From a bacterium (lineage in GTDB: Bacteria > Hinthialibacterota > Hinthialibacteria > Hinthialibacterales > Hinthialibacteraceae): a stretch of DNA of 64,000 nucleotides. This document shows, in pieces, positions 22,214 through 63,241 of the stretch (within the stretch, counting starts at the first letter, position 1; each line of letters starts with the position of its first letter). The notes beneath the pieces are model-generated. The model ran no database searches, was not told the origin of the DNA, and worked only from the letters and a program-made list of their open reading frames with translations. Location: assembly GCA_963662285.2 (NCBI GenBank), contig CAXXMV010000006.1:1344001-1408000 (forward strand), in the 5' to 3' direction. A program made the translations under genes and the position numbers.

Positions 22214-22840
22214 ATGTCAAAGCAGAAAGCTTTTACTCTCATCGAATTGCTTATTGTAGTTGCTATTATCGGTATTTTGGCTGCTATCGCCGTCCCTAAC
22301 TTTCTCAATGCGCAAATCCGCGCAAAGGTTGCCAGAGTAGAGTCGGATCATAAATCCCTTTCTACGGCGCTTGGCGCCTATCAGATCGATTATAACTCGT
22401 TCCCCGGTGATCATGACCTTGATCAATATATGGGTCCAGGTGGTCAGGATGGTCTTTTCCACCTCACTACGCCAGTCTCATATATGTCGTCGCTTCCCGC
22501 TGATCCATTTGTTGAGAAAAAACTTAAAGGCACGCTTGGCTTGGGCAATAGTAATGCCTATGCTGCTCTTGGACGTCCAGATTATGAAATGGGCAGCGGA
22601 GCTGATAATGCGCCAGGATACAGAAAACAGTGCTATAGTCTAATGAGCTATGGGCCGGATTATGATGATGATAACTCCAGTCATGATTCCTTCCCCTATA
22701 ATACGGATCATGACCGCTATAATCCCACTAATGGAATCCGTTCGGATGGCAACATTTTCCGTTTCGGCGGCGACTATTCATCAGGATGTCTAATCATGGA
22801 TTGGGGTTCATCACGAATTGGTGGTGGATGTGGCAATTAA
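22214..22840 (+). CDS. type IV pilin / GspG-like pseudopilin (prepilin N-terminal cleavage/methylation domain)
   Basis: KQKA|FTLIELLIVVAIIGILAAIAVPNF, with C-terminal SYGPD...YNPTNGIRSDGNI. Confidence 0.9.
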   Translation: MSKQKAFTLIELLIVVAIIGILAAIAVPNFLNAQIRAKVARVESDHKSLSTALGAYQIDYNSFPGDHDLDQYMGPGGQDGLFHLTTPVSYMSSLPADPFVEKKLKGTLGLGNSNAYAALGRPDYEMGSGADNAPGYRKQCYSLMSYGPDYDDDNSSHDSFPYNTDHDRYNPTNGIRSDGNIFRFGGDYSSGCLIMDWGSSRIGGGCGN

Positions 22841-22883
22841 ACACAAAACGTCTGATCTGGTATTTTGTTCATAGTAATAATAT

Positions 22884-22913
22884 CATATTTTATACTTGCA
22901 TATTTTATACTTG
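22884..22913 (+). repeat. exact 15-bp tandem duplication
   Basis: CATATTTTATACTTG x2. Confidence 0.85.
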
Positions 22914-22921
22914 ATTTTTTT

Positions 22922-22954
22922 ATGGGGTGCCTTTTAATTAATAAGTCACCCCAT
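22922..22954 (+). terminator. intergenic stem-loop between pilin and tagged-protein genes
   Basis: ATGGGGTG...CACCCCAT followed by an AT-rich tail. Confidence 0.5.
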
Positions 22955-23039
22955 TAATTTATTCGGAAAGGAGATAAAACTTTTTATTTGTATTGGCATT
23001 GGGAAATAAAATATTAGTTATTGAAAGGACAAACAAATA

Positions 23040-24845
23040 ATGAAGCGATTAAGTGTTTTGATTTTCGTAATCAGTCTATTTACTATGCCTGTTATGTCTC
23101 AAGTTTTATTGGAAGAAAATTTTGATAATGCGGCTATAGATGGCGTCTTTATCAATGTAGTTGATAACAATACAGGCCAGGATATTACACAACCTCAACA
23201 GTTTCAAGTAATCCAACCTGAAGGTTGGACAATTACAGCGGAAATCGATCCTGCAGACGTTAGCGCAGAAGGCGTATTTGATGGATTTTCCGCCGATTTT
23301 CCTTATCCTGCTTGGTCGGCTCTCTTTTATGAAGGTGAATGGGACAATGGAGGCGGCGACCGTAATCTAGAGAAGCCTTTCTTGGATGGCATCATGGTTT
23401 CAGATTCCGACCGGTTCGGCAACCTCGCCTATCGCACCTGGTTGAATAGTCCGTCGGTTGATTTCAGCGGATCTTCGATCATTATTGAATTCGATAACCA
23501 TTACCGACATAACGATAACCAGGTTGCTCAGTTGGATATCAGCTGGGATGGCGGCGCAACCTATACGCAAATCTTTTCCTGGGATGATACTAACCACAAT
23601 GATAATGAGAGTTATGTAGGTCATGAAACCTTTGCTGTTGTCACCCCGGAAGGCGCCAGCAGTTTCACTCTGCGCTTCTTCTTCGGAGGAGATAGCGACC
23701 AACGCGGCTTTACTGATTTCGATTGGTATTGGGCCTTTGATAATCTTCTAGTACGCGCTGGCGGCGATGCCGGCGCCCCTGCTGTTCCGGCTTTAAGCAT
23801 CTCAATAATTGATCCTAACGCTTTTTCAGGTATTGTTTTGACTAGTTCTGCATTCTCTGGCAGTGCGGATCATGTTAAATCCGAATGGCAGGTTGCATTG
23901 GATGAAGCATTCGAGAATTTAATATTTGCATCTGGAGAGACGGAAGGAAATCTTGTATCTATCGAAATACCCAGTGATGCTCTTCCTGTTGGACAGATGA
24001 TTTATGCGCGGGTTCGCCATCTGGATTCTAATGGCTTTGCTTCTGCATTTTCAGCGGCAGCTCAAACTTCTACTCCTGTTCCTGCGGGAATCAGCATAAT
24101 TGAAATTGAAGATTTTGAATCAACTGATGAATGGTCTTTACCAGAAGGCTGGAAAGAAATCAATTTCAATGATCCACTAACTGGCGATGCAAATGAAGAT
24201 AATTTCGCTACTTGGTCTGTAGTTACTGAAGACACTATGGCTTCTATCGGCGGCGACCGCGTTAATGTTCCTGTTTATGAAGGCAAATCCGTGTTTGTCG
24301 ATGCTGATGCTTTCAATCCATTCCAGGATGCTCATCTGTTTTCCAAACGTTATGATCTTACTGGCGTTACAAACGTTTGGCTCACTTTCGGCAGCAACTA
24401 TGTTCAGAACCAGGATAACATCGGCGCTTTGGAATACAGCGTTGATGGCGGTGATCTGAGCAATGACCGTACTCCAACTGGAACATGGCTGCCCTTGCTT
24501 TACTATCTCGATACAGAAGACATCACCTATAACGAAGATGGTACTCCTAATGCAGCGGAAACTTTCCGTGATGATAATGTAGCTGATGGTACGGCATTCG
24601 CATATAACTATTGGGTATTTGCTACTCCTATCGAAGATATGGGACCCTATATCGCCAATGGATATAATGATAATAAAACCGCTAACAAATCATTCCTTAA
24701 ATTCCGCCTCGAAGCAGCTGACGAACAATCCAATGTTGTTATTCGTTGGTCGAATATGGGAACCGATAGTTGGTTCTGGGGAGTGGATAATGTGACTATT
24801 TGGGGAACATCTGATACTGGCGTTTCGGAATGGTCGCTTTATTAA
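23040..24845 (+). CDS. secreted protein with two MAM/cleaved-adhesin-like beta-sandwich domains and C-terminal W-x-x-Y tag
   Basis: Signal peptide, duplicated 'E.F....PEGW...L.S...D..G...F...Y......L..S.DGG...R.....W.W..DN' domain, very acidic, ends DTGVSEWSLY*. Confidence 0.7.
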   Translation: MKRLSVLIFVISLFTMPVMSQVLLEENFDNAAIDGVFINVVDNNTGQDITQPQQFQVIQPEGWTITAEIDPADVSAEGVFDGFSADFPYPAWSALFYEGEWDNGGGDRNLEKPFLDGIMVSDSDRFGNLAYRTWLNSPSVDFSGSSIIIEFDNHYRHNDNQVAQLDISWDGGATYTQIFSWDDTNHNDNESYVGHETFAVVTPEGASSFTLRFFFGGDSDQRGFTDFDWYWAFDNLLVRAGGDAGAPAVPALSISIIDPNAFSGIVLTSSAFSGSADHVKSEWQVALDEAFENLIFASGETEGNLVSIEIPSDALPVGQMIYARVRHLDSNGFASAFSAAAQTSTPVPAGISIIEIEDFESTDEWSLPEGWKEINFNDPLTGDANEDNFATWSVVTEDTMASIGGDRVNVPVYEGKSVFVDADAFNPFQDAHLFSKRYDLTGVTNVWLTFGSNYVQNQDNIGALEYSVDGGDLSNDRTPTGTWLPLLYYLDTEDITYNEDGTPNAAETFRDDNVADGTAFAYNYWVFATPIEDMGPYIANGYNDNKTANKSFLKFRLEAADEQSNVVIRWSNMGTDSWFWGVDNVTIWGTSDTGVSEWSLY

Positions 24846-24888
24846 TCTTTTAGCAGTTGCTTAGATAGTTAGTTATATAAGATAATTT

Positions 24889-24929
24889 AAGGGAGAGCAT
24901 CCATTATGGGTACTCTCCCTTTTTCTTTT
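24889..24929 (+). terminator. rho-independent terminator
   Basis: AAGGGAGAG...CTCTCCCTT followed by TTTCTTTT. Confidence 0.8.
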
Positions 24930-24970
24930 CTGTTAATCTACAAATTTTTTCTAAAAACAGTGGTTGATAT

Positions 24971-25006
24971 CAACCCTCTCCTAACCTCTCCCAATCTTGG
25001 GAGAGG
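24971..25006. repeat. REP-like palindrome (inverted partner at 25071-25462 is interrupted by a MITE)
   Basis: CAACCCTCTCCTAACCTCTCCCAATCTTGGGAGAGG. Confidence 0.6.
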
Positions 25007-25086
25007 CATGTTTGTTCACAGTGTTTCTTACAACTAAGATCAAACAATACAACTGGCGACATCTCCAAAATTCCTCTCCCCCAAGT

Positions 25087-25428
25087 CTGATCTTTACCCC
25101 AAAATATCAATATGAGAGATTATAAGAAATACTATTAACTGAAGATAGGATAATCACGGGTGCCAAGGGCAGTGTATTTTCTGCCCTTGATTGAGTTTAC
25201 CTCTTTTATTCCAATCATTTGTATCAACGTTTTACTCAATAAATTGAATTATGATAAACGTTCAATTATTAATAGTTAGACTAAAATTAGAGTAAAAACG
25301 TGAATATCATAGAAATTTTTCCGTTTTTCAATAGTTATCTTTCAATGGCAGAAAGGACGCTGCCCTTGGCACCCGTATTGATCTCTTCATAGCCATTAAT
25401 AATAACAAAACTTTTGGGGAAAGATCAG
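25087..25428. mobile_element. non-autonomous MITE, 342 bp, with IS4/IS10-like ends and 9-bp target duplication
   Basis: Left end CTGATCTTTACCCCAAAA, right end TTTTGGGGAAAGATCAG. Flanking direct repeat CCCCCAAGT at 25078-25086 and 25429-25437. No transposase. Confidence 0.85.
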
Positions 25429-25577
25429 CCCCCAAGTTGGGGGAGAATTCAAGAGGGGGTTGTTAACTACAACCTTTGATTACCAAATCGTCGTTAGAGC
25501 GGTTAAAAAACTCATTGACGAACGTTATTATGAGAATCGCTCTAAATTCCCCCAAAGCAAAAAAATAAAAAAAACTC

Positions 25578-25616
25578 TTGACACTGTAATCGTCTACGAC
25601 TATAGTCATAGACGAT
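25578..25616 (+). promoter_or_regulatory. sigma70 promoter overlapped by a BlaI/MecI/CopY-type palindromic operator
   Basis: TTGACA(25578)-N17-TATAGT(25601). 28-bp near-perfect palindrome ATCGTCTACGACTATAGTCATAGACGAT (25589-25616) just upstream of the repressor gene. Confidence 0.85.
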
Positions 25617-25641
25617 CCAGCAAAGGCGAAGGTGAATTTGC

Positions 25642-30753: not shown

Positions 30754-30755
30754 GT

Positions 30756-43782: not shown

Positions 43783-46700
43783 TTAATAAACCATCCAGAT
43801 ATCAATGCTGGTAGTTTCGGCGCCGGGAGAGGGCGCCGCGGCTATCCAATTTGCAGGATCGTTGCCTGATCGTTCTGCCGATAACCTTTGCAATGACATG
43901 CCTTGGCCTGATGCTTCAATCGGCCAGGGCGCCGCATGAAAATAAATCGCTTCGTCGATTATGTTCCATGAGATGTTCCCGCCTTCATCGGTTAATACAA
44001 CTGATTGAGGTTTTTCCAGAGCGATCCGTTCGCCTTTGTTGGATAACTTACCTTCATAAGGTCCAAGAATAGTAATGCTCGAATCTACTATACCAAATTT
44101 TGTATAGAATAAATCTAATGAATTTTGATCGGTTGGATCGAAATCTACTATAAGCAGTTGCTCTCCGGGAGCTAGTGATACGCTATCGGGGAAAGTGAAG
44201 CCTATTCCGCCGTCAATGCGCCAGGGGCCATTCTGGTTTTGCAATTCTACTACCTTATCAATTGGATTCATTAGTTCAATAAATTCTCCAATTGGAATAT
44301 CCGCCGAGTCAACCGTCCCGGTATAATACATGATCTCATTGATGATTATGTCAGGATTGCCAGGAGCGTTGGCTTGATTTTTAGTAAGAGGCATTGCCAC
44401 CAGGAAGGGGTTGCCATCTTCGAAACGTCCCAAAGAACGATCAGTAATTTGCGCCTTAAAAGATACTGCATCGACCACCCGGTCTACGCCGGATTGGCCT
44501 GGCAGGTAAGAGAGATATAAGGATTCTCCATCTTTGCTTAGCCCAAATCCACTGCCGGATGGATTGTTGAAATCAGTTAATTCATTGAAAGTGATAAAAC
44601 CTCCAGCCGGGATTTCGATAGCGGGAAGCGCCCATTTGCGCAGGTCGCTATCATCATCACTGAGATGCCAGTCGCCCAGGTGGATGGTTGATGAAGAATT
44701 ATTGTATAACTCAATCCAGTCGTTTGTTGAAGCATCCTCTGATGAAGAAGAATTGGCCAGAAATTCGTTGATCACTATACTGGATAGACGATTTGCATCC
44801 GGTGATCCCGGAGAACCACCGAGAGCGAAACTGGTTTGCCAGTTGCCGCCGTAATCCAGAGAACCATCTTGCTGAGTGGGAATAGCGCTGGTAATGGGAA
44901 CCAGGGAATGTCCGGCGCCGTCAGCTGCGATAGGCCAACCTCTTCCATCGCTATAGTTGAATGATATGACGTCCTGATTATCCACTATTGTCGAAAGGGT
45001 GATTTGTTCTCCAGAGTTGGATAATTTACCGGAGTATGGTCCGATGATTGTGGTTGAAGCATCCAACCCGTAGTATTCTCTAAAAGCGTTGATGGCCTCA
45101 GTATTTTCAGCCAGGGAAACCAGGATATAACCATTAGCTGGAATGTGAACGCCATTATTGATAATCATCTCTATGCCGTTGGTGAATGACAGTCCGTTGA
45201 GCGATAGATCGGAGGTTGGATGGGTGTTATGTAATTCGATGAATTCAAAGTCGCCGTTATCAGCCGGGTTGTACATCACCTCAGTGATGCGTAGATTTTC
45301 CGCAATAGACGCAACGCTGGATGGCTGTGATTTAACCATAAACGAAGCTTGATTCAAAGCGCTCCAATCACCGTTTAAGAAGGTGCGCGCTTTGACGGTG
45401 GAGTTTTCGGTGATCAGCACTGCACTATCAAAGAGTTTGGCTGATTGGGTGTTGATGGCGCCATCTACCATACGAGGATCTGATCCATCCAACGTGTAAT
45501 AGATTGGAATCACAAGCGGCTCGTCTTTAGGTTTAGGTTGGGATGAGTTAAGCGATAAGCCGAATACTATGTCGCTGCTGGTTGCGTTAACCTGGTGAAC
45601 TTCTACCGCAATAATGTTTTGCCCTTTTTGCAGTAGTTCTTTGGGGATGATGAATGGACCCTCATATTGTGCGTTGGTTATGGTCAGGTTGGCGAAGGTT
45701 GAATAATCAACGGCGCCGCCTGACATGTGTACGCGCAGCGCTTCAATGCCATTTATATAAACGATTAGTCCGTCATCAACAAAAGTATTAATTTCGAAAG
45801 TACTCAAGTCTAGATCAATGTCATTTGAAATAATGAATTCCTTGCGGAAATAGTAGGTAACTTGACCTATTTGTAATTCAGTGTTCTTTTGCGCCTCCAA
45901 TGCTGTGTTTTCATGATAAAGCAGCGCTTTGCCGGATGGCCATTGAGCATCGTCATAGTCTGGATTCCTCCATGTTATACCCAAATCACTGCCGGATTGT
46001 TCGTATTTCCATGAATCATCGATTTTAATAATCGGAGTCGTAATCATCTCTTGATCTATGGATTCTTCCAGGGTCATTTTTAAGTCAAAATTGTATTCGA
46101 CTATTCCGCCATGTTGGTTGAAGGATGGCGCTGGAATGCCGGGGTAGTAACCGGCGGTTTTCAGCTGGTTTAATACGTTGGTCGTTCTGACCGGGAAATA
46201 TGTTGTCAGCAGACGATTGGTTTCTTTCAACCATTCATTATCGCGCGTCTTGGGGCTTCCTCCACTGACGTCTCCCCAACGGGCCGATTCTCCCACCATG
46301 GGGCGATACATAATATCTACTAGTTTTTGGTATCGCGCGGTTGCGGCGGTAGTTGTCAGGCCGCCGTCATTAAAGAAATGTTGGTGGATGCGGTCAGCCA
46401 ACCGCATTTTGAATTTCTGACTGGACATCAGTTTCAGGAAAATAAACGAGGGATCGTCGTATCCCTTGGTATGGAAGGTAATCACATTCCTGTCAGGTTC
46501 TTCGAGGGTCCACTCGGAATCCCAGCAGAAGAAATGGAAGCCGGCGCCCGGTTGCCGACGCCGGTTGGAGTAGAAATTCCAGGGCGTCCCGCCTCCACCG
46601 ATGACCGTAGGCGCATCACGGTTGCCGGTGAAATAAATGACCAACATGTAATCAATTAAACTATCGATATCTACATATTGCTGGATGGCTTCATATTTCG

Positions 46701-52514: not shown

Positions 52515-53150
52515 CTAATCAATTCCCCGGTTGGTAAGCATGATGTCGCCCCGGCTGGCGATTCCATTGCTCACGGCGTATTTGCTGCCGCGTGCGTTTG
52601 AGGTCGCGTCGGTCCATGATTGGCCGTACCATTCCCCATCAGGTCCGATTCCCCCAATAGCCCAGTCTCCAGGTTTTAATGGCTTGTTGCCATATAACTC
52701 AGCAGTATTCTCTTTGTAGGCGGGGAAATCATGATCGTCGCCTGTGAATGCAGCATCGTTATCCACATAGTAGTAATAACCCTGTGGTTTCTGGAAGGGA
52801 TCGTATGGAATGGATGACATATAGGCTATCGGGCTGGTCAGCGGCGCCAACACGGCCTGGTTTCCACGCGCTTCGAAATCCGGTCCAGCTCCAACCATAT
52901 TAAAAATTGTGCGCAGGCGTTCGTGCCCTTCTTCCAGGTCATCATCCCACCAATCAATCAGCAGCACGCCTTTATCTAATCGTAAAATTTCGATTGTTGT
53001 TCCCAAGGCTTTCATATCGGCGTAGCATCGGGCGCTTTTGGCCCGAATTTGGGCGTTCAAGAAGTTTGGAACTGCTATGGCCGCCAAGATACCGATAATG
53101 GCCACCACTATCAGTAATTCGATTAATGTGAAAGCGCGTTTGTTTGGCAT
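52515..53150 (-). CDS. type IV pilin / pseudopilin-like protein
   Basis: NKRA|FTLIELLIVVAIIGILAAIAVPNFLNAQIRAK, LTSPIAYM...P.DPF, GIGPDG...Y.VSNGIASRGDI. Confidence 0.9.
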   Translation of the reverse strand: MPNKRAFTLIELLIVVAIIGILAAIAVPNFLNAQIRAKSARCYADMKALGTTIEILRLDKGVLLIDWWDDDLEEGHERLRTIFNMVGAGPDFEARGNQAVLAPLTSPIAYMSSIPYDPFQKPQGYYYYVDNDAAFTGDDHDFPAYKENTAELYGNKPLKPGDWAIGGIGPDGEWYGQSWTDATSNARGSKYAVSNGIASRGDIMLTNRGID

Positions 53151-53220
53151 TGCATTATCCATATTCACAGGCGTTTTTTGAAAATCGTTCCCCGTTCATA
53201 TTATAGATGTTTTTTTCTAC

Positions 53221-53248: not shown

Positions 53249-53265
53249 TCATTCCGACATACTTG

Positions 53266-53451
53266 ATACGGTAATCCGCCATGCCTGGATTGTTTAATTC
53301 AACGCATTACGGATTATAGGGAAGCCGGTGTGAGTCCGGCGCGGTCCCGCCACTGTTATTGGTCATGCCTCGACTGTTTATCCACTGTCCGTTTAAGATG
53401 GATGGGAAGGAGGACGAGGATAACGGCCATAAGCCAGGAGACCTGCCGTAT
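53266..53451 (+). ncRNA. cobalamin (B12) riboswitch
   Basis: Hallmark blocks in order: ATAGGGAAGCCGGTG...TCCGGC.CGGTCCCGCCACTGT, CCACTG, GGGAAGG, and B12 box AAGCCAGGAGACCTGCC. Terminal helix ATACGG(53266)/CCGTAT(53446). Confidence 0.95.
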
Positions 53452-53633
53452 ATGAGTTGTCACCTCTTCGGGGATTGAGAGTGTGGCCGTGTAGAGCGCT
53501 TGTATCCAGCGCATTATATGCCCTTGTCCTGTGAGGTGACTGGGGTATTTTTATGTCTGCCTCAGTTATTTCCTCTTCCAAGATGACGCTTTCTTACCCG
53601 TAAACATTTTATCTTTCTAAGGAGTTATTCGAG

Positions 53634-54470
53634 ATGAAGCGTTTTACGGCAATGCTATTAGGTCTGTGTTTGTTTGTTCCTGCAAGTTGGTCTTTAAATA
53701 AGGCTGGCTTGGTCATCAAGAATTCAACCGGTGAGTTAATTACCCGTTGCGTAGAATTCGAAGAAGAATCAGTGACAGTAGAAAAACTGCTGCAAGACTC
53801 AGGCTTCAAACTGGTTACTGAAGATAGTGAGTCGGGCGTCATGCTGCATTACATTCATGATGATGGCGCTATGGATGGTTCACTACATGCCGATGGTTGG
53901 GTATGGAACTTTTTTTTGAATGATGCCAATGGCTGGGTATTCTCTCCGGGCGACGTTTCTTCTGCGACTGTGGTGGATGGAACCATCTTTGGATTTGGAT
54001 TCGGAGCATTGGGTGAGGTTGAATTGCCCGAACGAACATTCGCTGATGTATGTGAAATAACCAGTATGGCTGGAATTATCGTAGATCATAGCGATGGTAC
54101 GCGGGTGATTAATGTGGTTGAGTTTCCCGGTGAGACTATTACTGGACTGCAATTGTTACAAAGAACTGGTTTTGAATTAAAAACCAATGTTTCATCCTTT
54201 GGTACGGCCATTTGTGCGATTGATGGCGAAGGTCAGCCGGGCGATGATTGTTTCGGTGATCCGGAAGGCCGCTATTGGGCTTTTAATATTTTAGGTTTGG
54301 ATAACCAATGGATTTCTTCTATGGTTGGAGCTGGTGATGCAATTGTAAGGAATGATGATATTCATGGATATTACTTCTCGACCTGGGGATCAGTAGCGCC
54401 ACCAGTTAAAAGAGATGATATCCTAGGCGTTACTTCCGGCTTGGATAATTGGGAAGCCTATCAAGAATAA
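53634..54470 (+). CDS. secreted tandem DUF4430/transcobalamin-beta-domain-like protein (putative B12 binder) with W-x-x-Y tag
   Basis: Signal peptide and two internal repeats 'AG.ii..s.G......VEF..E..T...LLQ..GF.L'. Repeat 2 has SFG.AIC.IDG...YWAF...W.SS.VGA....V...DI.G. First gene after the B12 riboswitch. Ends TSGLDNWEAYQE*. Confidence 0.75.
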   Translation: MKRFTAMLLGLCLFVPASWSLNKAGLVIKNSTGELITRCVEFEEESVTVEKLLQDSGFKLVTEDSESGVMLHYIHDDGAMDGSLHADGWVWNFFLNDANGWVFSPGDVSSATVVDGTIFGFGFGALGEVELPERTFADVCEITSMAGIIVDHSDGTRVINVVEFPGETITGLQLLQRTGFELKTNVSSFGTAICAIDGEGQPGDDCFGDPEGRYWAFNILGLDNQWISSMVGAGDAIVRNDDIHGYYFSTWGSVAPPVKRDDILGVTSGLDNWEAYQE

Positions 54471-54481
54471 GATATATAATC

Positions 54482-55786
54482 ATGATAAAAAAATATTTTC
54501 AACAGTTAATTATATGTATATGGGCAATGACTCTCATAAGTGGATTTAATGACGCTTATGCCGTGGAATTTGATGAAGAGTTTACCCTATACCGGGGAGA
54601 GGAGGCTGTGGAGTTTTCACGTAATCCGCAGAACTCTATTGTCGTTGATTCTGAAGGCCGTATTCATCTGGTCTATTTTGTTCCAGACCAATCATCCAAT
54701 TCTCCTGAAAACCGCATCATGTATATGACTGTTGAAAATGGAGAGACCTCTTCTCCCGTCCGCGTGGATAGTACGGATATGGGCGGGGGGAGGCATCCCT
54801 CCCTGGCTATTGATTCAAAAGACGCCGTTCATGTCGTATGGCAAGATTACCGTCATACAACAGCAGCCGGTAATTACATTGATAACATCGAAATTTATTA
54901 TGATGTCAAACCCGTTGATAGTCAGTTTGCTCAAAATGATTGGCGATTGACGGATACTAATGCTGATCATAAAGGCGACAATGGTTTTGTTCCAAATATC
55001 GCTATCGGCTGCGATAACCGGATTCATGTTACATGGTATGATTACACATCCAATGGAAACAACGCTGATATTTATCTGCAAAGCAGCGACGCCGATGGCG
55101 CTTTTGTTAGTCAATCCGGTATAGAAGATTTTCGGATTACTGATGTCCAAGAGAATCCTGATAACTATACCTCCAATTGGCTGCCGGATGTTTGCGCATT
55201 GCCTGATGGTTCCGTCTATGTAGTTTGGGGTTTCCTTACTGGATGGCAGGGAACATTTGAATTACAGGGGCGGGTAGTTTCAGCTGATTGCGCCCTTGGC
55301 GATGTAGATATCATTGCTCCTAAGGGCGCTAGTTTTAATGATCCTCCACGGTTAGCGAGCGACCAGCAGGGGAATATGGCGATGGTTTATACTGCATACA
55401 TCGATGGAATGTATCAGGTTAACGTCCAATTCAAGCCAATAGGTGGAGTGTGGAGCGGCGCAGTGATCGTCAATGATGGAACAAAAGATTCTGCGCAGCC
55501 ATCAATTGCTTTTGATTCACTAGGAGTCGCTCACATTGTATGGCAGGAAGATTTTGGCGGTATATATCAAGTCGCCTATGCGCGGTTTGATCCACTAACC
55601 ATGTTAGTCGATAACCACACAGTTCTAAGCAGTGAATACGCCGACGCCAGAACGCCTGCCATAGCATTGCATCCTGTTACCGATCAAATAAATGTGGTTT
55701 GGATAGATCGCTGGGAGGAAGGCGAACGCGCTATCGTTATGTGCAGTGAAATATATATGGCGGTTGATTCCTGGCAACTATATTAA
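54482..55786 (+). CDS. secreted 7-blade beta-propeller protein with W-x-x-Y tag
   Basis: Signal peptide and seven 'P.(I/L)A.D..g..H(V/I)vW.d'-type repeats. Ends MAVDSWQLY*. Stop overlaps the next start (TAATG). Confidence 0.75.
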   Translation: MIKKYFQQLIICIWAMTLISGFNDAYAVEFDEEFTLYRGEEAVEFSRNPQNSIVVDSEGRIHLVYFVPDQSSNSPENRIMYMTVENGETSSPVRVDSTDMGGGRHPSLAIDSKDAVHVVWQDYRHTTAAGNYIDNIEIYYDVKPVDSQFAQNDWRLTDTNADHKGDNGFVPNIAIGCDNRIHVTWYDYTSNGNNADIYLQSSDADGAFVSQSGIEDFRITDVQENPDNYTSNWLPDVCALPDGSVYVVWGFLTGWQGTFELQGRVVSADCALGDVDIIAPKGASFNDPPRLASDQQGNMAMVYTAYIDGMYQVNVQFKPIGGVWSGAVIVNDGTKDSAQPSIAFDSLGVAHIVWQEDFGGIYQVAYARFDPLTMLVDNHTVLSSEYADARTPAIALHPVTDQINVVWIDRWEEGERAIVMCSEIYMAVDSWQLY

Positions 55787-56505
55787 TGGAAAAAGTAAAA
55801 TCTCAAAATTCATCGAACTTTGATGCTGCATTTACACTGATCGAATTATTGATCGTGGTAGCCATCATTGGAATCCTGGCGGCTATTGTAAGCGCCAACT
55901 ATTTCCGGGCGATTCGCCGCGCTGACGCCGCCGCATGTCAACAGAACCTGCGCACTATACATACTGCGTTGAATGCTTACCGCCTGGATTACAACCATTT
56001 TCCCCCTGCCGATGGAATCGCTGATGTGCAGCCTCATCCAGACAAAACAGAGTTCGGCTGCGGGCCAGCCGCCAATGGTTATTGGAGCGGAGTATCAATG
56101 CTCTTGGTTAAATATGACTATTGCGCAGAAGCCGCTCTGTATTGTCCGGCGTTGAAGCGCCAGCATAGTAATCGTATTGAGGCCTGGCCCAGTTGCGGTG
56201 ATACGGAATTTTCCGGTAAACTGGTTCCGCAATGGCGTTTCATGCGCTTCGCCTACAATAGCGCCGCCACTGATGTTGGTGGATACAGCGGAGGTGAACA
56301 TAATATCGAAGAAGACGGGGATGCTGATATCTGGTTAGTGCGCTGTCTTAATATTGATGTCGGGCAATTTGATGCTGAACGGGCTATCCGCTTTCCCTTT
56401 CGGATTAAGCAGGATGAAGAGAATTCCGCCCTGACCTGGTGGGGAGAATATGAACTTTCGCTTCATGGAACTATCCGTTTGCGTCCTGTCCAGTTGAGAA
56501 AATAA
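55786..56505 (+). CDS. type IV pilin / pseudopilin-like protein, Cys-rich variant
   Basis: DAA|FTLIELLIVVAIIGILAAIV...ACQQNLRTI..AL.AY..DY..FP...LYCPA. Translationally coupled to the upstream gene. Confidence 0.88.
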   Translation: MEKVKSQNSSNFDAAFTLIELLIVVAIIGILAAIVSANYFRAIRRADAAACQQNLRTIHTALNAYRLDYNHFPPADGIADVQPHPDKTEFGCGPAANGYWSGVSMLLVKYDYCAEAALYCPALKRQHSNRIEAWPSCGDTEFSGKLVPQWRFMRFAYNSAATDVGGYSGGEHNIEEDGDADIWLVRCLNIDVGQFDAERAIRFPFRIKQDEENSALTWWGEYELSLHGTIRLRPVQLRK

Positions 56506-56549: not shown

Positions 56550-56579
56550 AAAAAAGGTTGCTTATTCGCAACCTTTTTT
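56550..56579 (+). terminator. terminator closing the B12 operon
   Basis: AAAAAAGGTTGC-TTATTC-GCAACCTTTTTT. Confidence 0.8.
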
Positions 56580-56689: not shown

Positions 56690-58141
56690 ATGATCGATCA
56701 TGATCAGTTATGTGAGAGAATTAAATTTCAAATTGAATTGAAAAATTTCCCTGAAGCGTTGATACAACTGCGCCGGGAATTAGAGAGCAATCCCGAAGAC
56801 GGTCAGGTACAGTTTTGGTTGGGGATCGTCCTGGCTGAGATCAAAGAATACCGTGAAGCCAAAGATCACCTTACACTAGCTAAACAATTCGATCCCGAAA
56901 ATATGGATATTGATAGCATCCTGGAACAGATCGACCTTAAGCAATCCGGCGGCATAGAAGAAAAACCCATCGCATCGCACTATTTCAATCTTGAAGAACC
57001 CCAGGAATATAAGAAAAAACTATGCCCGCAATGCGCCAGACAAATCGCGGTTGACTCTTGGAAATGCGGTTATTGCAATCATATTTTTTATAAACGCATT
57101 ATCGTCACTTTAACCATAATGCTTGTACTGTGCGGTCTGTTTGTGAATATCTTCAAAAACTGGTATTCAGGATTCATGGGCTATGGATTTAGTGAAGCTT
57201 TCATCGTTAATAAAGCAGGTGAAGATGGAGAACGGATTGCCATTAGTGATGCGGAATGGAATTGTGTAGGTTTGGGTCTTGCCCAACATTTGGGAACAGG
57301 ATATAACGGTCGCGTCAAAGGTAAAATCAAAAATTCCGGCGACCAGGATATTGAGAAGGCGGTTATAACCATATTCTTACAATTCGATGCTGATCGCGAT
57401 GTAACCTTTGTCTGGTTTGATGTATATAACTGGGCGTCAGGGATGGAATTGGATTTTGATTTCCCCGGCATATCGCCTCCCTATCGACCGAAACGCTGCG
57501 AATTACGAGTTGAGAGCGTCGTGTTGGCCAAAGAGAAATTAGCGGTCGGCGTAAAACCGACTTTTTATGTACCTTGGGGAGGGGGCGTCGGTCAAGTTTG
57601 TCATTTCCCTTCATACAAATTCACGGCAGGCGAGGAATTGCTGGCGGAGCGGCAATATGCCTGGTATAAGCCCGCCGATCCGTGGTCTTTCAAGCAATTT
57701 CTGTTTGCATATTTAGATATCATTCCACCATTGATTTTCAATTTCTTCTGCGTCATGGCGGCGGTTATACTGGTTAATCTTTGCGACCCAGATAGAAAAT
57801 GGAATACTGAATTAACTCTTGATGCATTCGCCAGCGCCTTTTTGGTTATTGGATTCATCCCGCTTAATGTTCTTTCCTATATTCTAGGGATATTTTGGCT
57901 TTTCAGAATGATCCTATTTTTTGGCAAGTTATATTTGTTTTATCTGTTCTTTAAAAGGTCTATTGGATTTACTATTCTGATGATTATTTTTTATGTCTTG
58001 GTAGTCATGTCTTGTATGGGGCTATGGTATAAAATTGTAGGTGCGCCGGAAAAAAATATTCCTCCTTCATATCATCAATTGCAAATGGGAGACGAAAATA
58101 TGATGGGTGGCATGAAAGGCGCCAATCCACCCAAGCCCTGA
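56690..58141 (+). CDS. membrane protein with N-terminal TPR, zinc ribbon, a soluble domain and C-terminal TM helices
   Basis: TPR (FWLGIVLAE....EA...L..A..FDPEN), CPQC...CGYC, one TM, a soluble domain, then about 4 TM. Confidence 0.7.
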   Translation: MIDHDQLCERIKFQIELKNFPEALIQLRRELESNPEDGQVQFWLGIVLAEIKEYREAKDHLTLAKQFDPENMDIDSILEQIDLKQSGGIEEKPIASHYFNLEEPQEYKKKLCPQCARQIAVDSWKCGYCNHIFYKRIIVTLTIMLVLCGLFVNIFKNWYSGFMGYGFSEAFIVNKAGEDGERIAISDAEWNCVGLGLAQHLGTGYNGRVKGKIKNSGDQDIEKAVITIFLQFDADRDVTFVWFDVYNWASGMELDFDFPGISPPYRPKRCELRVESVVLAKEKLAVGVKPTFYVPWGGGVGQVCHFPSYKFTAGEELLAERQYAWYKPADPWSFKQFLFAYLDIIPPLIFNFFCVMAAVILVNLCDPDRKWNTELTLDAFASAFLVIGFIPLNVLSYILGIFWLFRMILFFGKLYLFYLFFKRSIGFTILMIIFYVLVVMSCMGLWYKIVGAPEKNIPPSYHQLQMGDENMMGGMKGANPPKP

Positions 58142-58222
58142 GTTTTTATAGAATCCAGGTTTTTTAATATGTATGATTTTTTATTAACGTTATTGCGAGC
58201 TAAATGTTATTTATAAAGAAAA

Positions 58223-58261: not shown

Positions 58262-58291
58262 AGTTATACAGTTTTATTAGATGGTGCTTTC

Positions 58292-59062
58292 TCAATTACT
58301 TTGAATTCGGTGAATCATAATTCTTTCAGCATAGAAGGAATCGGGTATTTCATCTTCATTCGTATCAATAAATACCACATGCGCTCCGGCAATATCGCCT
58401 GGCAGAATCTCTTCATCCTCTTGCAAGCGTGTGCGAATAACGGTGGATTCATCAATAATAACGGGGATGCCTTCAATGACCGCAAGTCCGTTTTCAATAT
58501 CGAATGAATCGAGCAAGCCCCGGATTCCGCCCTCGTTGGAATCACAGATATTGCTCTCAACATCCATTACCCGCACTTTTGATGCTTGCAAAATTGAGCC
58601 ATTTTCAGTTTCGATAATCATCGCCTGTATGAATACGTGTTGACCGGCTTGGATTTCTACTATTTCCGAGTCCTCTTCGGATTCTTCATCAACAAAGCGA
58701 CACTGACGAACAAACGGCATATATTCGATTTCAGCTTCAGTTGTATCGACCGCTAAGGCGCCGTCAATGATCGATAGCGAAACTTCGTTTACTTCTGATA
58801 TAACGCCCCGGAGAAAAACGGTTCCATCTTCCCAATTGATGCAAATACAGGCAGTAGCATTTCTTGGAATAGCACGGTCTTTCCCACGATTCATCCTTCC
58901 CTGTCCTTGAGGAGTTCCAGGCATAGGATTCGATGCAACATCGTCTGATCCGATTACTCGAATGCCTCCTTTTCTTCCACGGGCTTCAGAATCCAGGCTC
59001 ATCAAGCATAAACCGGCGAAAATTCCAACCAACAGCGCAAAATACAATGATTTCTTAGGCAT
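58292..59062 (-). CDS. secreted protein with two OB-fold-like (DUF5666-like) repeats
   Basis: Signal peptide and two 'G.i.......i.g..V..d..t.i......l..G..v.v........l.A..i' units. Confidence 0.6.
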   Translation of the reverse strand: MPKKSLYFALLVGIFAGLCLMSLDSEARGRKGGIRVIGSDDVASNPMPGTPQGQGRMNRGKDRAIPRNATACICINWEDGTVFLRGVISEVNEVSLSIIDGALAVDTTEAEIEYMPFVRQCRFVDEESEEDSEIVEIQAGQHVFIQAMIIETENGSILQASKVRVMDVESNICDSNEGGIRGLLDSFDIENGLAVIEGIPVIIDESTVIRTRLQEDEEILPGDIAGAHVVFIDTNEDEIPDSFYAERIMIHRIQSN

Positions 59063-59278: not shown

Positions 59279-59923
59279 TTAAGGAATTTGCTGAGGGAAA
59301 GAAAGATTACCGCCGAATCGTCCCAAATCGCCTTCCGACCGTAATCCGTTGCTGGGTTGATAGCAGGCAGAGGATAGTAACGATCCGATTCCGGGAAGCG
59401 GTCGCAATCCCAAACTCGAATCTTTGCCATCCGGACCAAAACTTATTATTCCATAACCTGGAATAGGATTCCGGGGGGGAACCATGAAATGCGAATAATC
59501 GTAATATCCAAATCCAAATAAATCAGGGACATTTAATATTTCCAGAGATATTGAATCATTGATGGTTTGCGCCGTATTCTTCGTGAAAGGATCACGTAAA
59601 ATTTCAATATCGCCGGGTAGATAAGAGCCGATTAGAGATTGCAATGCAACTTGAGCATCGTAATTTGTGATAAATTGAGACGGAGGATCGCTTGAACCAT
59701 AAGGATAATGTCCCCGGTCAAAGGAAAAAGTTTCTACCGCATCAGAAATGATTCGAAGATTGTTCTGCGTGGAGGCTATTTTTGCTTTTAACAAAGCATT
59801 GTTAACGACAGGCATAGAAATAGCCGCAAGGATACCGATGATTGCCACCGATACCAATAACTCATTGAGAGTAAAAGCGCTTCTATATCTTTTGCGATAA
59901 AACAGATAATTATGACGTTTCAT
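59279..59923 (-). CDS. type IV pilin / pseudopilin-like protein
   Basis: RSA|FTLNELLVSVAIIGILAAISMP...AK, DPF, SFGPDG...YQPSNGLRSEGDL. Confidence 0.88.
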   Translation of the reverse strand: MKRHNYLFYRKRYRSAFTLNELLVSVAIIGILAAISMPVVNNALLKAKIASTQNNLRIISDAVETFSFDRGHYPYGSSDPPSQFITNYDAQVALQSLIGSYLPGDIEILRDPFTKNTAQTINDSISLEILNVPDLFGFGYYDYSHFMVPPRNPIPGYGIISFGPDGKDSSLGLRPLPGIGSLLSSACYQPSNGLRSEGDLGRFGGNLSFPQQIP

Positions 59924-60110
59924 AATATATAAGTATATCAACGTTTGCTGAAAATGTGAATCACTTATTGAAAGATAATATGATATTGTTATCAAGTCAG
60001 TTAGACTTTATATAAAAGATTCATCAAATAAATCCTGAAAGTAAACCCAAATCGTTTTCTACGCCTTCTATAATATATAGGTAAATAATAATTTACAGGA
60101 GAAATATTGG

Positions 60111-60743
60111 ATGGCTGTTTCTGCGCCAAACCCAGCTGGAGAAGATCAAATTCACGAAATCCAGAAATCTACTGACCGGACTCAATCGGATCACGAACTT
60201 CTGGAGCGTTCGATGAATTGCGACCGGACGGCGTTTAGTGAATTAGCCAAACGGTATTTTCATATCGTTTATGCGACAGCTCTATCGATTCTTAATTCTC
60301 CAGAAGAAGCTGAAGACGCCTGTCAGGATGGATTGATCAAAGCGTTTCGATATATTAAAACGATCAGAGATCCCGATAAATTTGGTTTTTGGTTGCGGAG
60401 CATCGTCCGTCAGGAAAGTTGTTCACGTTTAAAGAAAAAGTCCAGAACGCTTACTTTATTGAAAAAGATTAGTACGGAAAATCAATCGGATGCAGTACTT
60501 ATTCATTCTGATAAGCAACGCCGATTGTATCATAAACAATTATTGCATCATGCGGTTGAACACTTATCAGAGAAAGCCAGGGAAATCGTCTTGTTGCACT
60601 ATATGAGCGGTTTAAGTTGTGAAGAAATTGCCGTTCAAGTCGGTTCACGTCCAGGTACAATCAAGAGTCATTTATTCAAATCGCGTCAGAAGATGCTCGG
60701 TTATTTGTCTGAAATCGGAGTACACTCCATTGAAGATATTTAA
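60111..60743 (+). CDS. ECF RNA polymerase sigma factor
   Basis: D..AFSEL..RY...VY..A...L....EAEDACQD...F..WL.SI; L....REIV.LHY..GLS.EEIA...G...GTIKSHL. Confidence 0.93.
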   Translation: MAVSAPNPAGEDQIHEIQKSTDRTQSDHELLERSMNCDRTAFSELAKRYFHIVYATALSILNSPEEAEDACQDGLIKAFRYIKTIRDPDKFGFWLRSIVRQESCSRLKKKSRTLTLLKKISTENQSDAVLIHSDKQRRLYHKQLLHHAVEHLSEKAREIVLLHYMSGLSCEEIAVQVGSRPGTIKSHLFKSRQKMLGYLSEIGVHSIEDI

Positions 60744-60794
60744 GATAGAAAAAGTAAGATGGGAATTTATTTCCCTCTTAAGTTTGAGGTTATC

Positions 60795-61619
60795 ATGAAT
60801 AGGATACCGGATACAAACGTAGAGAAGGAAGACGTATTATTACGCGAGTTAGGCAAATCCGTCTTTCCCGATCAGGAACGTTTTCAAAAGAATCTTTTTA
60901 CCCGGCTGGAAATCGAACATATCAGGCATTCTTTAGAAGAAGACCAGGTCGTTGCCTGGCGCAGAAAGCCCTGGTTCCGGTTTGCTTATGCCGCGGTCTT
61001 TCTAGTAATGGTGATGTTATCAGGAACGTACTGGTATTATTCTTCTACAAAAGCCATTGCAACCGTAGCGGTTGCATTGGGGGATATAACGACATCCAGC
61101 GCATCTTCACAGGATAAATCTATTTATCCTGGAGATATCGTTCAAAGTGATACTGCCAGTCAAGCCAGTTTGTTGTTATCTGACCGATCTCTAATCCGGC
61201 TCGACGAGCAATCGTCCCTGAAAATGATCGAACGGCGCAAAATCAAACTCCTGGAAGGACGTTTGTTCGCCGAAATCGCCCGGACGCCCCAAATCGATCA
61301 ATTCCAGATTGATACCAAAAACATATCCATCATCGTCTTGGGAACCTCTTTTGAGGTAGACGCACAAGAAGAACAAAACACCGTAACGGTTTATCAAGGC
61401 TCGGTGCGCGTGGAATGGTCAGGTCAATCAAAAACTTTAACTAAAGGTGATTCCTTATCAATTTCAACGAATAACCAAAGTTCTCAAAGCCATACAGTAA
61501 AAACTGATATTCCGGTCTGGTTGATGAAATTACGTCAGGCTGAATCGAACAACCCTATTATCCAAGAGATGCAGAAGCATTTCCCCAGCCGTTCGTTGAA
61601 TATCAAGAAAAGTCCATGA
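60795..61619 (+). CDS. FecR-domain anti-sigma factor
   Basis: Single TM followed by A.L.L.D.S.I.L...S.L......L.EG..F......F.I.T....I.VLGTSFEV......V.V..GSV.V. Confidence 0.88.
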   Translation: MNRIPDTNVEKEDVLLRELGKSVFPDQERFQKNLFTRLEIEHIRHSLEEDQVVAWRRKPWFRFAYAAVFLVMVMLSGTYWYYSSTKAIATVAVALGDITTSSASSQDKSIYPGDIVQSDTASQASLLLSDRSLIRLDEQSSLKMIERRKIKLLEGRLFAEIARTPQIDQFQIDTKNISIIVLGTSFEVDAQEEQNTVTVYQGSVRVEWSGQSKTLTKGDSLSISTNNQSSQSHTVKTDIPVWLMKLRQAESNNPIIQEMQKHFPSRSLNIKKSP

Positions 61620-63241
61620 TGAAATCTTTTTTTTTTACCATATTTATATTGTTATTCATGGAATCTGCTTTTAGTGATAATCCAGTTCCAATGGATGGCT
61701 TTACTGTTCATTCTCTTGATCCCACGGTGAATCTATTGAGCGGAATGGTTTGGACTTCCGATGGATTAGTGGTTTGCGACCGCAGTGCGGGGACGCTTCT
61801 GCTCATTCATAACGACCAGTCCACTGAGGTCATTATCGACCAATTGGATACTCCTGTAGATGTGATGGAATACCAGAATCAATGGCTCATTCTTCAAGAA
61901 ATTGAAGGTTCGTTAATTGCCGTCGATAAGGAAACATTACACCGAAGAACCATAGCCGGAGAATTCATTCATCCCACTGCATTTACTATCGATGATAATA
62001 ATACGGCTTATATCACAGAATTTGAGACAGGTTTTCTATTTAAGATTGATCTTGAATCAGGAGAGACTGAACGAATTCCTGTGATGTTCGACCGACCGGC
62101 GGATGTTCTCTTTGTAAAGCCTGATTTGCTGTATATTGCTGATCAGGTAGGAGCGGATCTTCAAGCGGGAACTGTGGTAACAATAAATAGAAGCGGAAAA
62201 CTTTTACGCTTCGAGACAGATATTATCGATCCTACAGGACTCGCCTTATCGCATTCTGGAGAAATATATGTTTCAACCTTCTCGATACGTGATTCATCTT
62301 CTGGCAATCGCATGCAATCGTTCAACGGTGGAGTGGTATGTTTAAGCGATCATCATATATCCACCGAAATCGTCTCCGGTCTATTAGGGCCGACCAGTAT
62401 TCTTTTTGATGATGAAGGTAATTTGATCGTTCTTGAAGAACCCACGGATTCTATTTACCGATTCTCCTCTTCAGGAGAACGGACGCCGATTCTGGAAGGA
62501 TTCGCACCAGTCATGCAGGCGGCTCGCAACAACAATGGCGATATTTATGCTATAGAAAATACTCCTTTGCATCAAATAAAGATTCGTAAACAAGATGGTT
62601 TTATTTCGAGTTGGGGGCATTCATTTATTAAAATGTGGGATCGAGTGAAGATGGCTGTTGATGGACCGGGCTATGTATATATTTCCGAACCGATGTTTTC
62701 CCGCATACTTGTTTACGATCAAACGGGAAATCAGGTTCATGCATTTGACAATATATTCCCGTTTTATATGATGGGCATACCTACTGGCGGGATTTTTGTC
62801 TTCACTCTGAGAGGTAACTCATTCGCTCTTTCCCTGTTAAAAGCAGAGGAAAGCATCATAAATATTCCTATTGAACTCGACAACATGTTCACAACCGGTT
62901 TTGCCAGATCAGATGACCAACTGGTTTTATGTTTTGCCAATGGAGAAATACAGGAATTCTCGCTTGGAACTAACCAGAAAAAAAGAATCAACCCAGGTCA
63001 TAAAAGAGTTACCTATCTTTCATCCGCTCCAGACAAAAACAACGAAAATGCATTCTGGTTATTGGATTCCAATTATAATATTCTATTCTGGGACGGCAAC
63101 GAACTGATTCCTGCCGCACAGGCAACTGAACCGGGCATACTCCTCGCTGCTTCCAATGGCGTTTTATTCATAGGAAATTCCGGCAAACGTTTCCCTATCC
63201 AACCTGAAACCTCAGCAATTTCAGGTTGGAATTTATATTAG
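61616..63241 (+). CDS. secreted NHL/SMP-30-like beta-propeller protein with W-x-x-Y tag
   Basis: Signal peptide and repeats such as HPTAFTIDDNNTAYITE, DPTGLAL..SGEIYVS, GPTSILFDDEGNLIV. 4-nt overlap with the FecR gene. Ends ETSAISGWNLY*. Confidence 0.75.
   Translation: MMKSFFFTIFILLFMESAFSDNPVPMDGFTVHSLDPTVNLLSGMVWTSDGLVVCDRSAGTLLLIHNDQSTEVIIDQLDTPVDVMEYQNQWLILQEIEGSLIAVDKETLHRRTIAGEFIHPTAFTIDDNNTAYITEFETGFLFKIDLESGETERIPVMFDRPADVLFVKPDLLYIADQVGADLQAGTVVTINRSGKLLRFETDIIDPTGLALSHSGEIYVSTFSIRDSSSGNRMQSFNGGVVCLSDHHISTEIVSGLLGPTSILFDDEGNLIVLEEPTDSIYRFSSSGERTPILEGFAPVMQAARNNNGDIYAIENTPLHQIKIRKQDGFISSWGHSFIKMWDRVKMAVDGPGYVYISEPMFSRILVYDQTGNQVHAFDNIFPFYMMGIPTGGIFVFTLRGNSFALSLLKAEESIINIPIELDNMFTTGFARSDDQLVLCFANGEIQEFSLGTNQKKRINPGHKRVTYLSSAPDKNNENAFWLLDSNYNILFWDGNELIPAAQATEPGILLAASNGVLFIGNSGKRFPIQPETSAISGWNLY

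Follow-up and report, generated by a model that had tools for sequence, protein, structure and literature searches.

What are pilin-like proteins doing behind a cobalamin riboswitch and next to a sigma factor/FecR pair, and why do signal-peptide proteins with the same short C-terminus lie beside them? The question is raised by a 64,000-nt stretch of a Hinthialibacterota genome, C6:1344001-1408000 (the window), whose source genome, designated G000, comprises 7.29 Mb in 8 contigs with about 44% G+C and is 92.5% complete. A preliminary description of this DNA paired four prepilin genes with proteins ending in W-x-x-Y, placed the pairs where TonB-dependent receptors would be expected, and proposed that they are interchangeable parts of one shared machine resembling a type IV pilus (T4P) or type II secretion system (T2SS), possibly serving nutrient capture. 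To our knowledge, almost all that is understood of how vitamin B12 and other large nutrients cross the outer membrane concerns TonB-dependent transporters. Here we place a pilin in the cobalamin regulon of this phylum and find that the link between pilins and the C-terminal tail is real and specific, yet partial; this suggests a pilus-type machine for nutrient capture.

All elements of the preliminary description are in place: the prepilin genes, the tagged proteins, the riboswitch, the TAATG overlap that couples propeller and pilin, and the sigma/FecR pair, whose sigma factor is of the extracytoplasmic function (ECF) type. The cobalamin module, unit (b), consists of the following features:

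53253-53464 (+): cobalamin riboswitch heading the unit (RF00174, 100.2 bits against a gathering threshold of 31.5; model positions 1-189)
53634-54470 (+): signal-peptide repeat protein, 278 aa, with two internal repeats, ending DNWEAYQE
54449-55786 (+; likely start 54482): secreted seven-bladed beta-propeller (AlphaFold2 model), tail AVDSWQLY
55784-55788 (+): TAATG, in which the propeller stop overlaps the pilin start
55786-56505 (+): B12-regulon pilin, 239 aa (PF07963 and TIGR02532 above cut-off)
56550-56579 (+): terminator-like hairpin ending the unit, a 12-bp stem followed by a T run

Among the 35 genomes of the phylum used for comparison, homologues of the pilin head are found in 34, at up to 78% identity, and homologues of the propeller in 33, the pilin head being the better conserved of the two. 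The tail tryptophan of the propeller is invariant in 25/25 aligned sequences, and orthologues of the repeat protein keep a near-terminal W-x-x-[YF] with one to five residues after it. By a tally of the two homologue tables, pilin and propeller homologues lie within 5 kb of each other in 17 of the 33 genomes holding both, and such pairs occur as two paralogous pair types. Scanning a species-representative genome collection with the pilin head gave 29 loci (relative loci are labelled L), 19 of which have a cobalamin riboswitch (Rfam). In 13 of these (L107-L111, L116, L117, L118, L122, L125, L126, L129 and L134) the end of the aptamer lies about 100-250 nt ahead of the pilin, which is thus the first controlled gene; in the other six (L113, L114, L115, L119, L120 and L121) the riboswitch stands at the head of an operon that includes the repeat protein, the propeller or both and has the pilin as its last gene. 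Three further loci, with close pilin orthologues, are interrupted by contig ends, and the seven with distant pilins (51-56% identity) have no riboswitch.

Several of these pilins have genes of cobalamin handling beside them. Downstream of the riboswitch and pilin stand a FecCD permease and an ATP-binding cassette (ABC) ATPase in L116 and L117, CobT in L122, and a propeller paralogue with CobQ in L107, where a CobD-type aminotransferase and CbiB lie upstream; in three genomes the sole Peripla_BP_2 gene comes directly after the propeller. Riboswitch control and btuFCD or cobamide neighbours recur across the loci; pilin, propeller and repeat protein are therefore members of the phylum's cobalamin regulon, their genes interleaved with those of BtuFCD and of salvage enzymes. 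For B12, then, the nutrient-capture idea gains strong comparative support, from the riboswitches and from btuCD, cobT, cobQ and cbiB beside the pilin. In the relative carrying L107, cobamide salvage genes, two propeller genes and a riboswitch-controlled pilin are interleaved in one co-directional block (L107:160-8026).

The other two cobalamin riboswitches of G000 control a BtuF/ABC/FecCD importer and NrdD-NrdG. The latter, outside the window at C6:1053589-1056220, precedes an anaerobic NrdD and its radical-SAM activase, and presumably turns off this B12-independent reductase when B12 is present. An extension of the riboswitch-pilin pattern to another cofactor was tried and dropped, as the gene behind the sole thiamine pyrophosphate riboswitch of G000, of 491 aa, is not a pilin. 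The pilin was also considered as a substitute for BtuF and rejected, since BtuF-type genes are present in G000 and in the genomes with pilin-btuCD operons.

Structure prediction gives some indication of what these proteins look like. The AlphaFold2 model of the propeller has seven blades and a mean predicted local distance difference test (pLDDT) score of 88.7, with a pLDDT of 54 for the last five residues, the tail being disordered in the model. Foldseek with this model returned sialidase, GH145 and PL-type propellers at template modelling (TM) scores of about 0.6 among the 50 PDB matches listed, and profile searches of PDB sequences with the propeller gave nothing convincing. For the repeat protein, a PDB sequence search found nothing below E=0.028, and an Atlas search gave weak leads only (SCO2322 at 0.86; DUF4430 at 0.82, rank 7). 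In the pilin model (pLDDT 86.5), residues 18-69 form a helix and the head is of mixed alpha/beta structure, and a profile search of PDB sequences matches the N-terminal parts of solved pilins. A complex prediction for propeller residues 39-445 with pilin residues 40-239, run on separate alignments (score 0.01, mark 0.32), speaks neither for nor against binding.

The seven loci without a riboswitch (L127, L128, L130-L133 and L135, in relatives; for example L127:3881-6905) are themselves operons of constant order: a pilin 51-56% identical to the B12 pilin head, a propeller paralogue and a gene of about 182-197 aa, in many cases joined by one of 118 aa. In these operons the propeller paralogue has the tail V..W[MR].[FLY][EQDR]. 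In L127, the one locus of the seven scanned with Pfam, the last two genes encode a MotA/ExbB-family protein and a DUF2149 protein, which hints that operons of this type may couple a proton-motive-force motor to a pilin-propeller pair. DUF2149 is absent from G000.

Does a conventional receptor serve these regulators elsewhere in the genome? The BtuB equivalog (TIGR01779, cut-off 599.7 bits) was not found in G000, at its 92.5% completeness; the best match scores 85.2 bits and spans only the N-terminal third of the model. Seven TonB-dependent receptor genes are present, six tandem paralogues and one 995-aa gene beside ExbB, ExbD and TonB, and none of the seven adjoins a B12 riboswitch or an ECF/FecR pair. 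The suggestion that neither the riboswitch nor the FecR regulators have a BtuB or other TonB-dependent complement is therefore borne out in G000. Across the 35 genomes, receptor matches to the Pfam barrel model range from 0 to 11 per genome; 12 of the 35 have none, as do 5 of the 18 high-quality genomes of the phylum. The six tandem receptors of G000 (C6:1100745-1113460, outside the window; 685-709 aa, co-directional) all end in KLTYRF, and their block adjoins several two-component signalling genes.

The other pilins and tagged proteins of the window, with their neighbours, are these:

22214-22840 (+): prepilin of unit (a), 208 aa (PF07963 and TIGR02532 above cut-off; GspG equivalog 55.9 bits)
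23040-24845 (+): signal-peptide protein, 601 aa, ending TGVSEWSLY (no Pfam family above cut-off)
43783-49371 (-): signal-peptide protein, 1862 aa, ending TSIDIWMVY (four Lamin-tail (LTD) domains, with CotH, PA14 and Fn3_assoc domains)
52515-53168 (-): prepilin of unit (d), 217 aa (PF07963 and TIGR02532 above cut-off)
58292-59062 (-): signal-peptide protein, 256 aa, without a Pfam family, downstream of and co-directional with the unit (c) pilin
59279-59995 (-; likely start 59923): prepilin of unit (c) (PF07963 and TIGR02532 above cut-off), divergent from the sigma/FecR operon
60111-60743 (+): ECF-type sigma factor (Sigma70_r2 and Sigma70_r4_2)
60759-61619 (+): FecR-domain anti-sigma-like protein (PF04773, E=8.9e-18)
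61616-63241 (+): signal-peptide NHL/ScyE-like propeller protein, 541 aa, ending SAISGWNLY (NF033206 ScyE_fam, E=2.3e-14, below cut-off)

By their class III signals, with the N-terminal cleavage/methylation motif and its Glu5 (PF07963, TIGR02532), all four window pilins belong to the type IV pilin/pseudopilin superfamily, and in G000 they are part of a large family: 119 genes carry the prepilin motif, and in 88 of them the 23-residue core of the N-terminal helix is identical. The DNA encoding this core is on average only 76.5% identical, and third codon positions only 37%. Since the protein sequence is identical while the DNA has diverged to this extent, the comparison indicates that the helix has been held by purifying selection and not by recent copying, as would be expected if all subunits must fit one assembly machine or lattice. 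The notion of interchangeable parts for one shared machine fits these 88 pilins. For three of the four window pilins the best-scoring NCBIfam equivalog is GspG, and all four miss its cut-off (TIGR01710, 88.85 bits) with 55.9, 44.2, 52.7 and 40.1 bits. With GspG and other pseudopilus subunits they share the class III signal (G/A-FTLIELL) and the long N-terminal helix, but they are about 60 residues longer, have diverse heads and are encoded away from machinery loci. The family of the unit (b) pilin head counts 52 members among 5.8 billion clustered proteins, and such names as they carry are only 'prepilin-type' or 'type II secretion system protein'.

A machine that could assemble such subunits is encoded in the genome, outside the window. 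G000 has 11 T2SSE-family ATPases (PF00437), four of them short and possibly PilT-like, together with 8 secretins, 8 platform genes and 2 prepilin peptidases, so that several sets of T4P/T2SS genes are present; complete T2SS-like loci elsewhere in the genome have their own, different pseudopilins. Within C6:1344001-1408000 there is no G000 match to PF00437, PF00482, PF00263 or PF01478, in agreement with the earlier remark that the window lacks pilus and T2SS machinery.

The C-terminal tail is likewise a genome-wide feature. The preliminary description counted five signal-peptide proteins with W-x-x-Y tags in the window; in four the motif is at the exact C-terminus, and in the repeat protein 53634-54470 it lies two residues inward. 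For G000 as a whole we used our own crude gene calling (longest non-overlapping open reading frames (ORFs) of at least 60 aa; 5891 genes). W..Y at the exact end is the commonest C-terminal pattern (91/5891 ORFs; the runner-up, E..K, has 70), and moved 2-11 residues inward it occurs in 1-8 genes per offset. The broader pattern W.[LIVMTCA][YFH] is found at the exact end of 135 genes, one residue inward in 29 and in 0-6 at each offset from 2 to 11. By a simple rule, 75 of the 91 W..Y genes carry a signal-peptide flag. The logo of the tail reads T(-9) x [VI](-7) x [DNE](-5) W(-4) x [LI](-2) [YFH](-1); about 155 exported proteins of G000, the tagged set used in the neighbour tests below, bear this tail, T-x-[VI]-x-[DNE]-W-x-[LI]-[YFH], followed by at most one extra residue. 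The tag is also found in G003, a genome of another family sampled over 1.2 Mb, in 9 genes at offset 0 versus 1 at offsets 2-5.

Several known types of C-terminal signal were compared with this tail. PEP-CTERM/exosortase, LPXTG/sortase and the C-terminal domain of the type IX secretion system (T9SS) likewise put one C-terminal element on many unrelated exported proteins, and the beta-signal of outer-membrane proteins shares the terminal aromatic residue. The present tail differs from all of these in being nine residues long, without a transmembrane helix, basic cluster or 80-residue domain, and its carriers are soluble multidomain proteins, whereas those of the beta-signal are barrels. In the five tagged proteins of the window, no NCBIfam domain for a tripartite sorting signal (PEP-CTERM, LPXTG, GlyGly-CTERM) was found at E<=0.01, and neither NCBIfam nor Pfam gave a C-terminal domain hit of any kind, a T9SS domain included, the conserved part being nine residues; tagged proteins stop 0-1 residue past the motif, with no hydrophobic helix and basic tail after it. 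A PDZ-type reading, with a free carboxylate at the aromatic residue, is weakened by the 29 genes with one extra residue and by several orthologues with 1-8.

Are pilins and tagged genes neighbours more often than their numbers predict? A W..Y gene lies immediately beside 12 of the 119 pilins, against 3.7 expected from label shuffles, and 1 of 1000 shuffles reached 12; the adjacent pairs are co-directional in 13/13 cases, with gaps of -1 to 245 bp. With the broader tagged set, a tagged gene is found within 300 bp of 21 of the 119 pilins (null 4.7, maximum 11 in 300 draws). Adjacency thus exceeds what shuffled gene order gives, a comparison set as a test beforehand. A co-directional pilin within 300 bp accompanies 18/155 tagged genes, 47/1495 other signal-peptide genes and 59/4122 of the remaining genes. 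A Fisher test of tag-pilin adjacency against other signal-peptide genes gives p=3e-5. When the 284 genes adjoining tagged genes were scanned by family, pilins were the sole enriched paralogue family (20/98, p=4e-8), the second-best family reaching only p=0.02. The link between pilins and tail is therefore real and specific, yet partial.

The units of the window differ in conservation. For unit (a), orthologues of the pilin (head 62-77% identity) adjoin homologues of the 23040 protein in five other genomes, whereas the two genes are unlinked in at least three; 23040 homologues occur in 22 of the 35 genomes, and the unit is conserved in about half. Unit (c) has kept its layout in seven other genomes from three families, with the pilin on one strand and the sigma factor, FecR-like protein and NHL protein on the other: homologues of the NHL protein were found in 9 genomes, and in 8 of them, including G000, a divergent pilin orthologue lies about 2 kb away. 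The tails of the NHL orthologues read IHNWTIH, IRNWGHY, VTDWSMY, VSRWCLF, VADWLLR and VDNWLLHGLPGE, and one contig ends within the gene. In L086-L088, a gene of 266-293 aa takes the place of 58292-59062 downstream of the unit (c) pilin. In unit (d), a hybrid histidine-kinase gene on the opposite strand separates the 52515 pilin from the tagged gene ending at 49371; the arrangement is not conserved, the ten best orthologues of the 52515 pilin (64-82% identity) lying off the contigs that carry the B12 unit, with varying neighbours. We take this pairing, judging from gene order in relatives, to be incidental.

The genes at 60111-60743 and 60759-61619 are by their domains an ECF sigma factor and a FecR-domain protein, one of 8 such pairs in G000. 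Three of the pairs adjoin a pilin and a secreted propeller (NHL in the window, FG-GAP in the other two), and in four the gene that follows encodes a signal-peptide protein of about 1000 aa. As in FecI/FecR/FecA signalling, the sigma gene is followed by the gene for the FecR-domain protein; the TonB-dependent transducer that adjoins them in that system is absent from all 8 pairs, and the 9 FecR matches of G000 are all without a PF00593 match nearby. In the two FG-GAP operons (C8:1130088-1135059 and C1:254352-257854) the pilin comes directly after the ECF sigma and FecR-domain genes and the propeller gene lies upstream; one propeller has the tail IHDWMNH, the other is tail-less. A second recurrent module type is represented by four units (C2:431827-435987, C1:125688-129861, C1:33207-38196 and C8:218266-222405), each comprising an ECF sigma factor, a FecR-domain protein of about 190 aa and a tail-less signal-peptide protein of about 1000-1250 aa.

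The explanation that we favour, and to which we give about an even chance, is that the phylum as a whole has a modular extension of the type-4-filament (T2SS/T4P) superfamily, of which the window is a sample, with a common machine, a tail that serves as an address, and ligand-specific modules made up of a pilin and an exported protein. The roughly 100 'orphan' pilins, with one invariant assembly helix and differing heads, would be alternative subunits of a common filament machine encoded elsewhere; it is the invariance of the helix that makes us think of a single type-4 filament. The tail may act as a shared address, or as a docking signal, that directs its carriers to this envelope machinery or to the cell surface. 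A minority of pilins would be co-encoded with one exported protein, often a beta-propeller, under a ligand-specific regulator (a cobalamin riboswitch or an ECF sigma/FecR pair), and the two partners of such a module, pilin head and exported protein, probably join in a tip or adaptor complex specific for the ligand. Unit (b) is the clearest case: its pilin, propeller and repeat protein most likely act ahead of BtuFCD, in the capture or outer-membrane step that elsewhere is done by BtuB (with BtuG). Because about 155 unrelated proteins carry an invariant tail whereas the pilin heads are diverse, a shared reader of the tail appears more likely than a pilin-specific contact. We infer the contact between the partners, the incorporation of these pilins into a filament, the direction of transport (outward display, inward uptake by retraction, or both), the binding of B12 and the existence of a tail reader.

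A number of results weigh against this explanation. No machinery gene lies in any module examined, and pairing is not the rule: a partner within 300 bp is missing for 137/155 tagged genes and 98/119 pilins. The tag-adjacent pilins form no specialised clade; on a FastTree tree of 116 of the 119 pilins (three of more than 260 residues were omitted) their label needs 20 changes, against 19.45 when shuffled, like random labels. In the 1.2-Mb sample of G003, with 20 pilins and 10 tagged genes, there is one adjacent pair, a number equalled in 231/1000 draws; the sample is small, and the result is not significant. Searches by sequence and fold also brought out nothing in favour of B12 binding by the module proteins: BtuG was not among the 50 best Foldseek PDB matches listed for the propeller, the unit (b) pilin head has no PDB fold match at E<=0.001, and for the repeat protein the transcobalamin-like DUF4430 (PF14478) was rejected, 0/10 members matching it in Pfam at E<=1. 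Finally, gene calls and signal-peptide flags are crude heuristics of our own, with the signal peptides of the window judged by eye, and all genomes used are metagenome-assembled genomes of uncultivated bacteria.

The pilins and the tag could also be functionally independent of each other, the pilins forming inner-membrane-anchored binding, shuttle or signalling modules, the tag being sorted by an unrelated envelope factor, and their adjacency reflecting shared substrate regulons. We consider this unlikely, though several observations favour it: most pilins adjoin untagged genes (47 plus 59 co-directional neighbours are untagged), the pilin directly follows the sigma-FecR pair in two G000 operons, as a signalling partner might, it precedes btuC-btuD in L116 and L117 like a binding protein, and the unit (b) pilin has a weak DUF1559/SBP_bac_10 match (E=0.0015, below cut-off). 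Yet the identity of the helix in 88 paralogues with saturated synonymous sites exceeds what a membrane anchor needs and fits co-assembly into one lattice, a separate BtuF-type binding protein is encoded in G000 and in the pilin-btuCD genomes, and pilins alone among paralogue families are enriched next to tagged genes. That two abundant families are simply co-located in the window, by chance or artefact, is hardly credible: the families are indeed large (119 and about 155 of 5891 genes), unit (d) is not conserved and the G003 sample falls short of significance, but the observed adjacency was reached in 1/1000 shuffles and 0/300 draws and holds against other signal-peptide genes (Fisher p=3e-5), synteny is kept across families, and a pilin is under riboswitch control.

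The remaining alternatives accept the link and differ in what the tail contacts. In the strict form put forward in the preliminary description, each pilin head binds the C-terminal tag of its neighbour and displays that cargo on a filament. The tight, co-directional spacing of all 13 pairs, their conservation, and the reported precedent of TcpF and TcpB (PMC10120004) are in keeping with this form, and the paralogous pilin-propeller pairs with the shifted tail V..W[MR].[FLY][EQDR] hint at co-variation. A tag that is near-identical on about 155 unrelated proteins, however, cannot encode cognate specificity when the heads are diverse and the paired pilins form no clade, and 88% of tagged proteins have no pilin neighbour, which leaves the strict form improbable. 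Of the preliminary reading as a whole, then, which is partly supported, the adjacency and the nutrient connection hold, and the idea that each pilin reads the tag of its own partner is unlikely. Still more improbable, in our view, is a TonB-like coupling, in which a helix-anchored pilin would span the periplasm and an ExbB-type motor would pull the tagged propeller, whose tail would pair by beta-strand like a TonB box. The constant order of the seven riboswitch-less loci and the MotA/ExbB-family and DUF2149 genes of L127 favour such a coupling; against it, G000 has no DUF2149 match, the window has no such motor genes, and the Pfam scan covers one of the seven loci.

A bolder version of the favoured explanation, which we regard as rather unlikely and put forward tentatively, would have a retractile filament with ligand-specific pilins replace TonB-dependent outer-membrane transport in members of the phylum. 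Each ligand-specific pilin would be switched on by its own sensor, a B12 riboswitch or an ECF/FecR pair, and built into the common retractile filament, and the pilins and tail-tagged binders would catch cobalamin and other ligands and pull them through a secretin to periplasmic ABC importers. Import by retraction has an analogue in the uptake of DNA by competence pili.

Known systems offer partial parallels to these modules. PilY1 is a Sec-exported beta-propeller that works with minor pilins at the tip of the type IVa pilus; it is encoded in the minor-pilin operon of a single pilus, whereas the propeller-pilin pairs described here are many, dispersed and under nutrient-type regulators. BtuG is a seven-bladed propeller. 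In Bacteroides, BtuB and the surface lipoprotein BtuG are reported to provide B12-riboswitch-linked surface capture upstream of BtuFCD (PMC6143338, PMC10404256). That system and unit (b) are both linked to a riboswitch and have a seven-bladed propeller and BtuFCD, but G000 has no BtuB equivalog, the signal peptide of its propeller has no evident lipobox, and it includes a pilin.

The closest documented mechanism, by analogy, is the export of TcpF by the toxin-coregulated pilus. In Vibrio cholerae, a disordered terminal segment of TcpF is reported to be its export signal and to bind the minor pilin TcpB (PMC10120004), and export that depends on type IVb pili is described for TcpF via TcpB and, in enterotoxigenic Escherichia coli, for CofJ via CofB (PMC10120004, PMC6048534, PMC9565799). 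As presented in these sources, a Sec-exported protein is encoded beside pilin genes, as in the modules here, and its export signal is a short disordered stretch at one terminus, which docks on one of the pilins of a type-4 filament; the tail of the unit (b) propeller is likewise disordered in its model. TcpF and CofJ differ in that there is one pilus per exoprotein and the signal is N-terminal and system-specific, whereas here one C-terminal tail is found on about 155 proteins, with about 100 pilins outside pilus operons. In the literature searched, judged by titles and listings, no description was found of the tail, of the pilin expansion of this lineage or of a pilin controlled by a cobalamin riboswitch. 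What is new here is the test of neighbour families, the finding of conserved modules and, as the strongest result, the placing of a pilin in the B12 regulon.

In a phylum with few or no TonB-dependent receptors, the cobalamin regulon thus includes, beside BtuFCD, genes for a pilin, a propeller and a repeat protein. If the favoured explanation is true, there would be a second way of actively capturing nutrients across the outer membrane, the large unexplained expansions of pilin-like genes in several uncultivated and PVC-type lineages would gain a function, and proteins could be marked for export or surface display by a C-terminal signal that is short and portable. The B12 module consists of three small soluble proteins, so that cobalamin binding can be assayed without culturing the organism.

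Two further observations concern genes at the edge of these units. In relatives, orthologues of the 52515 pilin adjoin three larger prepilin-type genes of 267-511 aa (L079:8652-12392 and L080:529-4355), a block that resembles a minor-pilin set and is not found so in G000. Between units (b) and (c), the window encodes a 483-aa protein at 56690-58141 (+) with a tetratricopeptide repeat segment, a long hydrophobic C-terminal half and a UPF0547-type zinc-ribbon match below cut-off.

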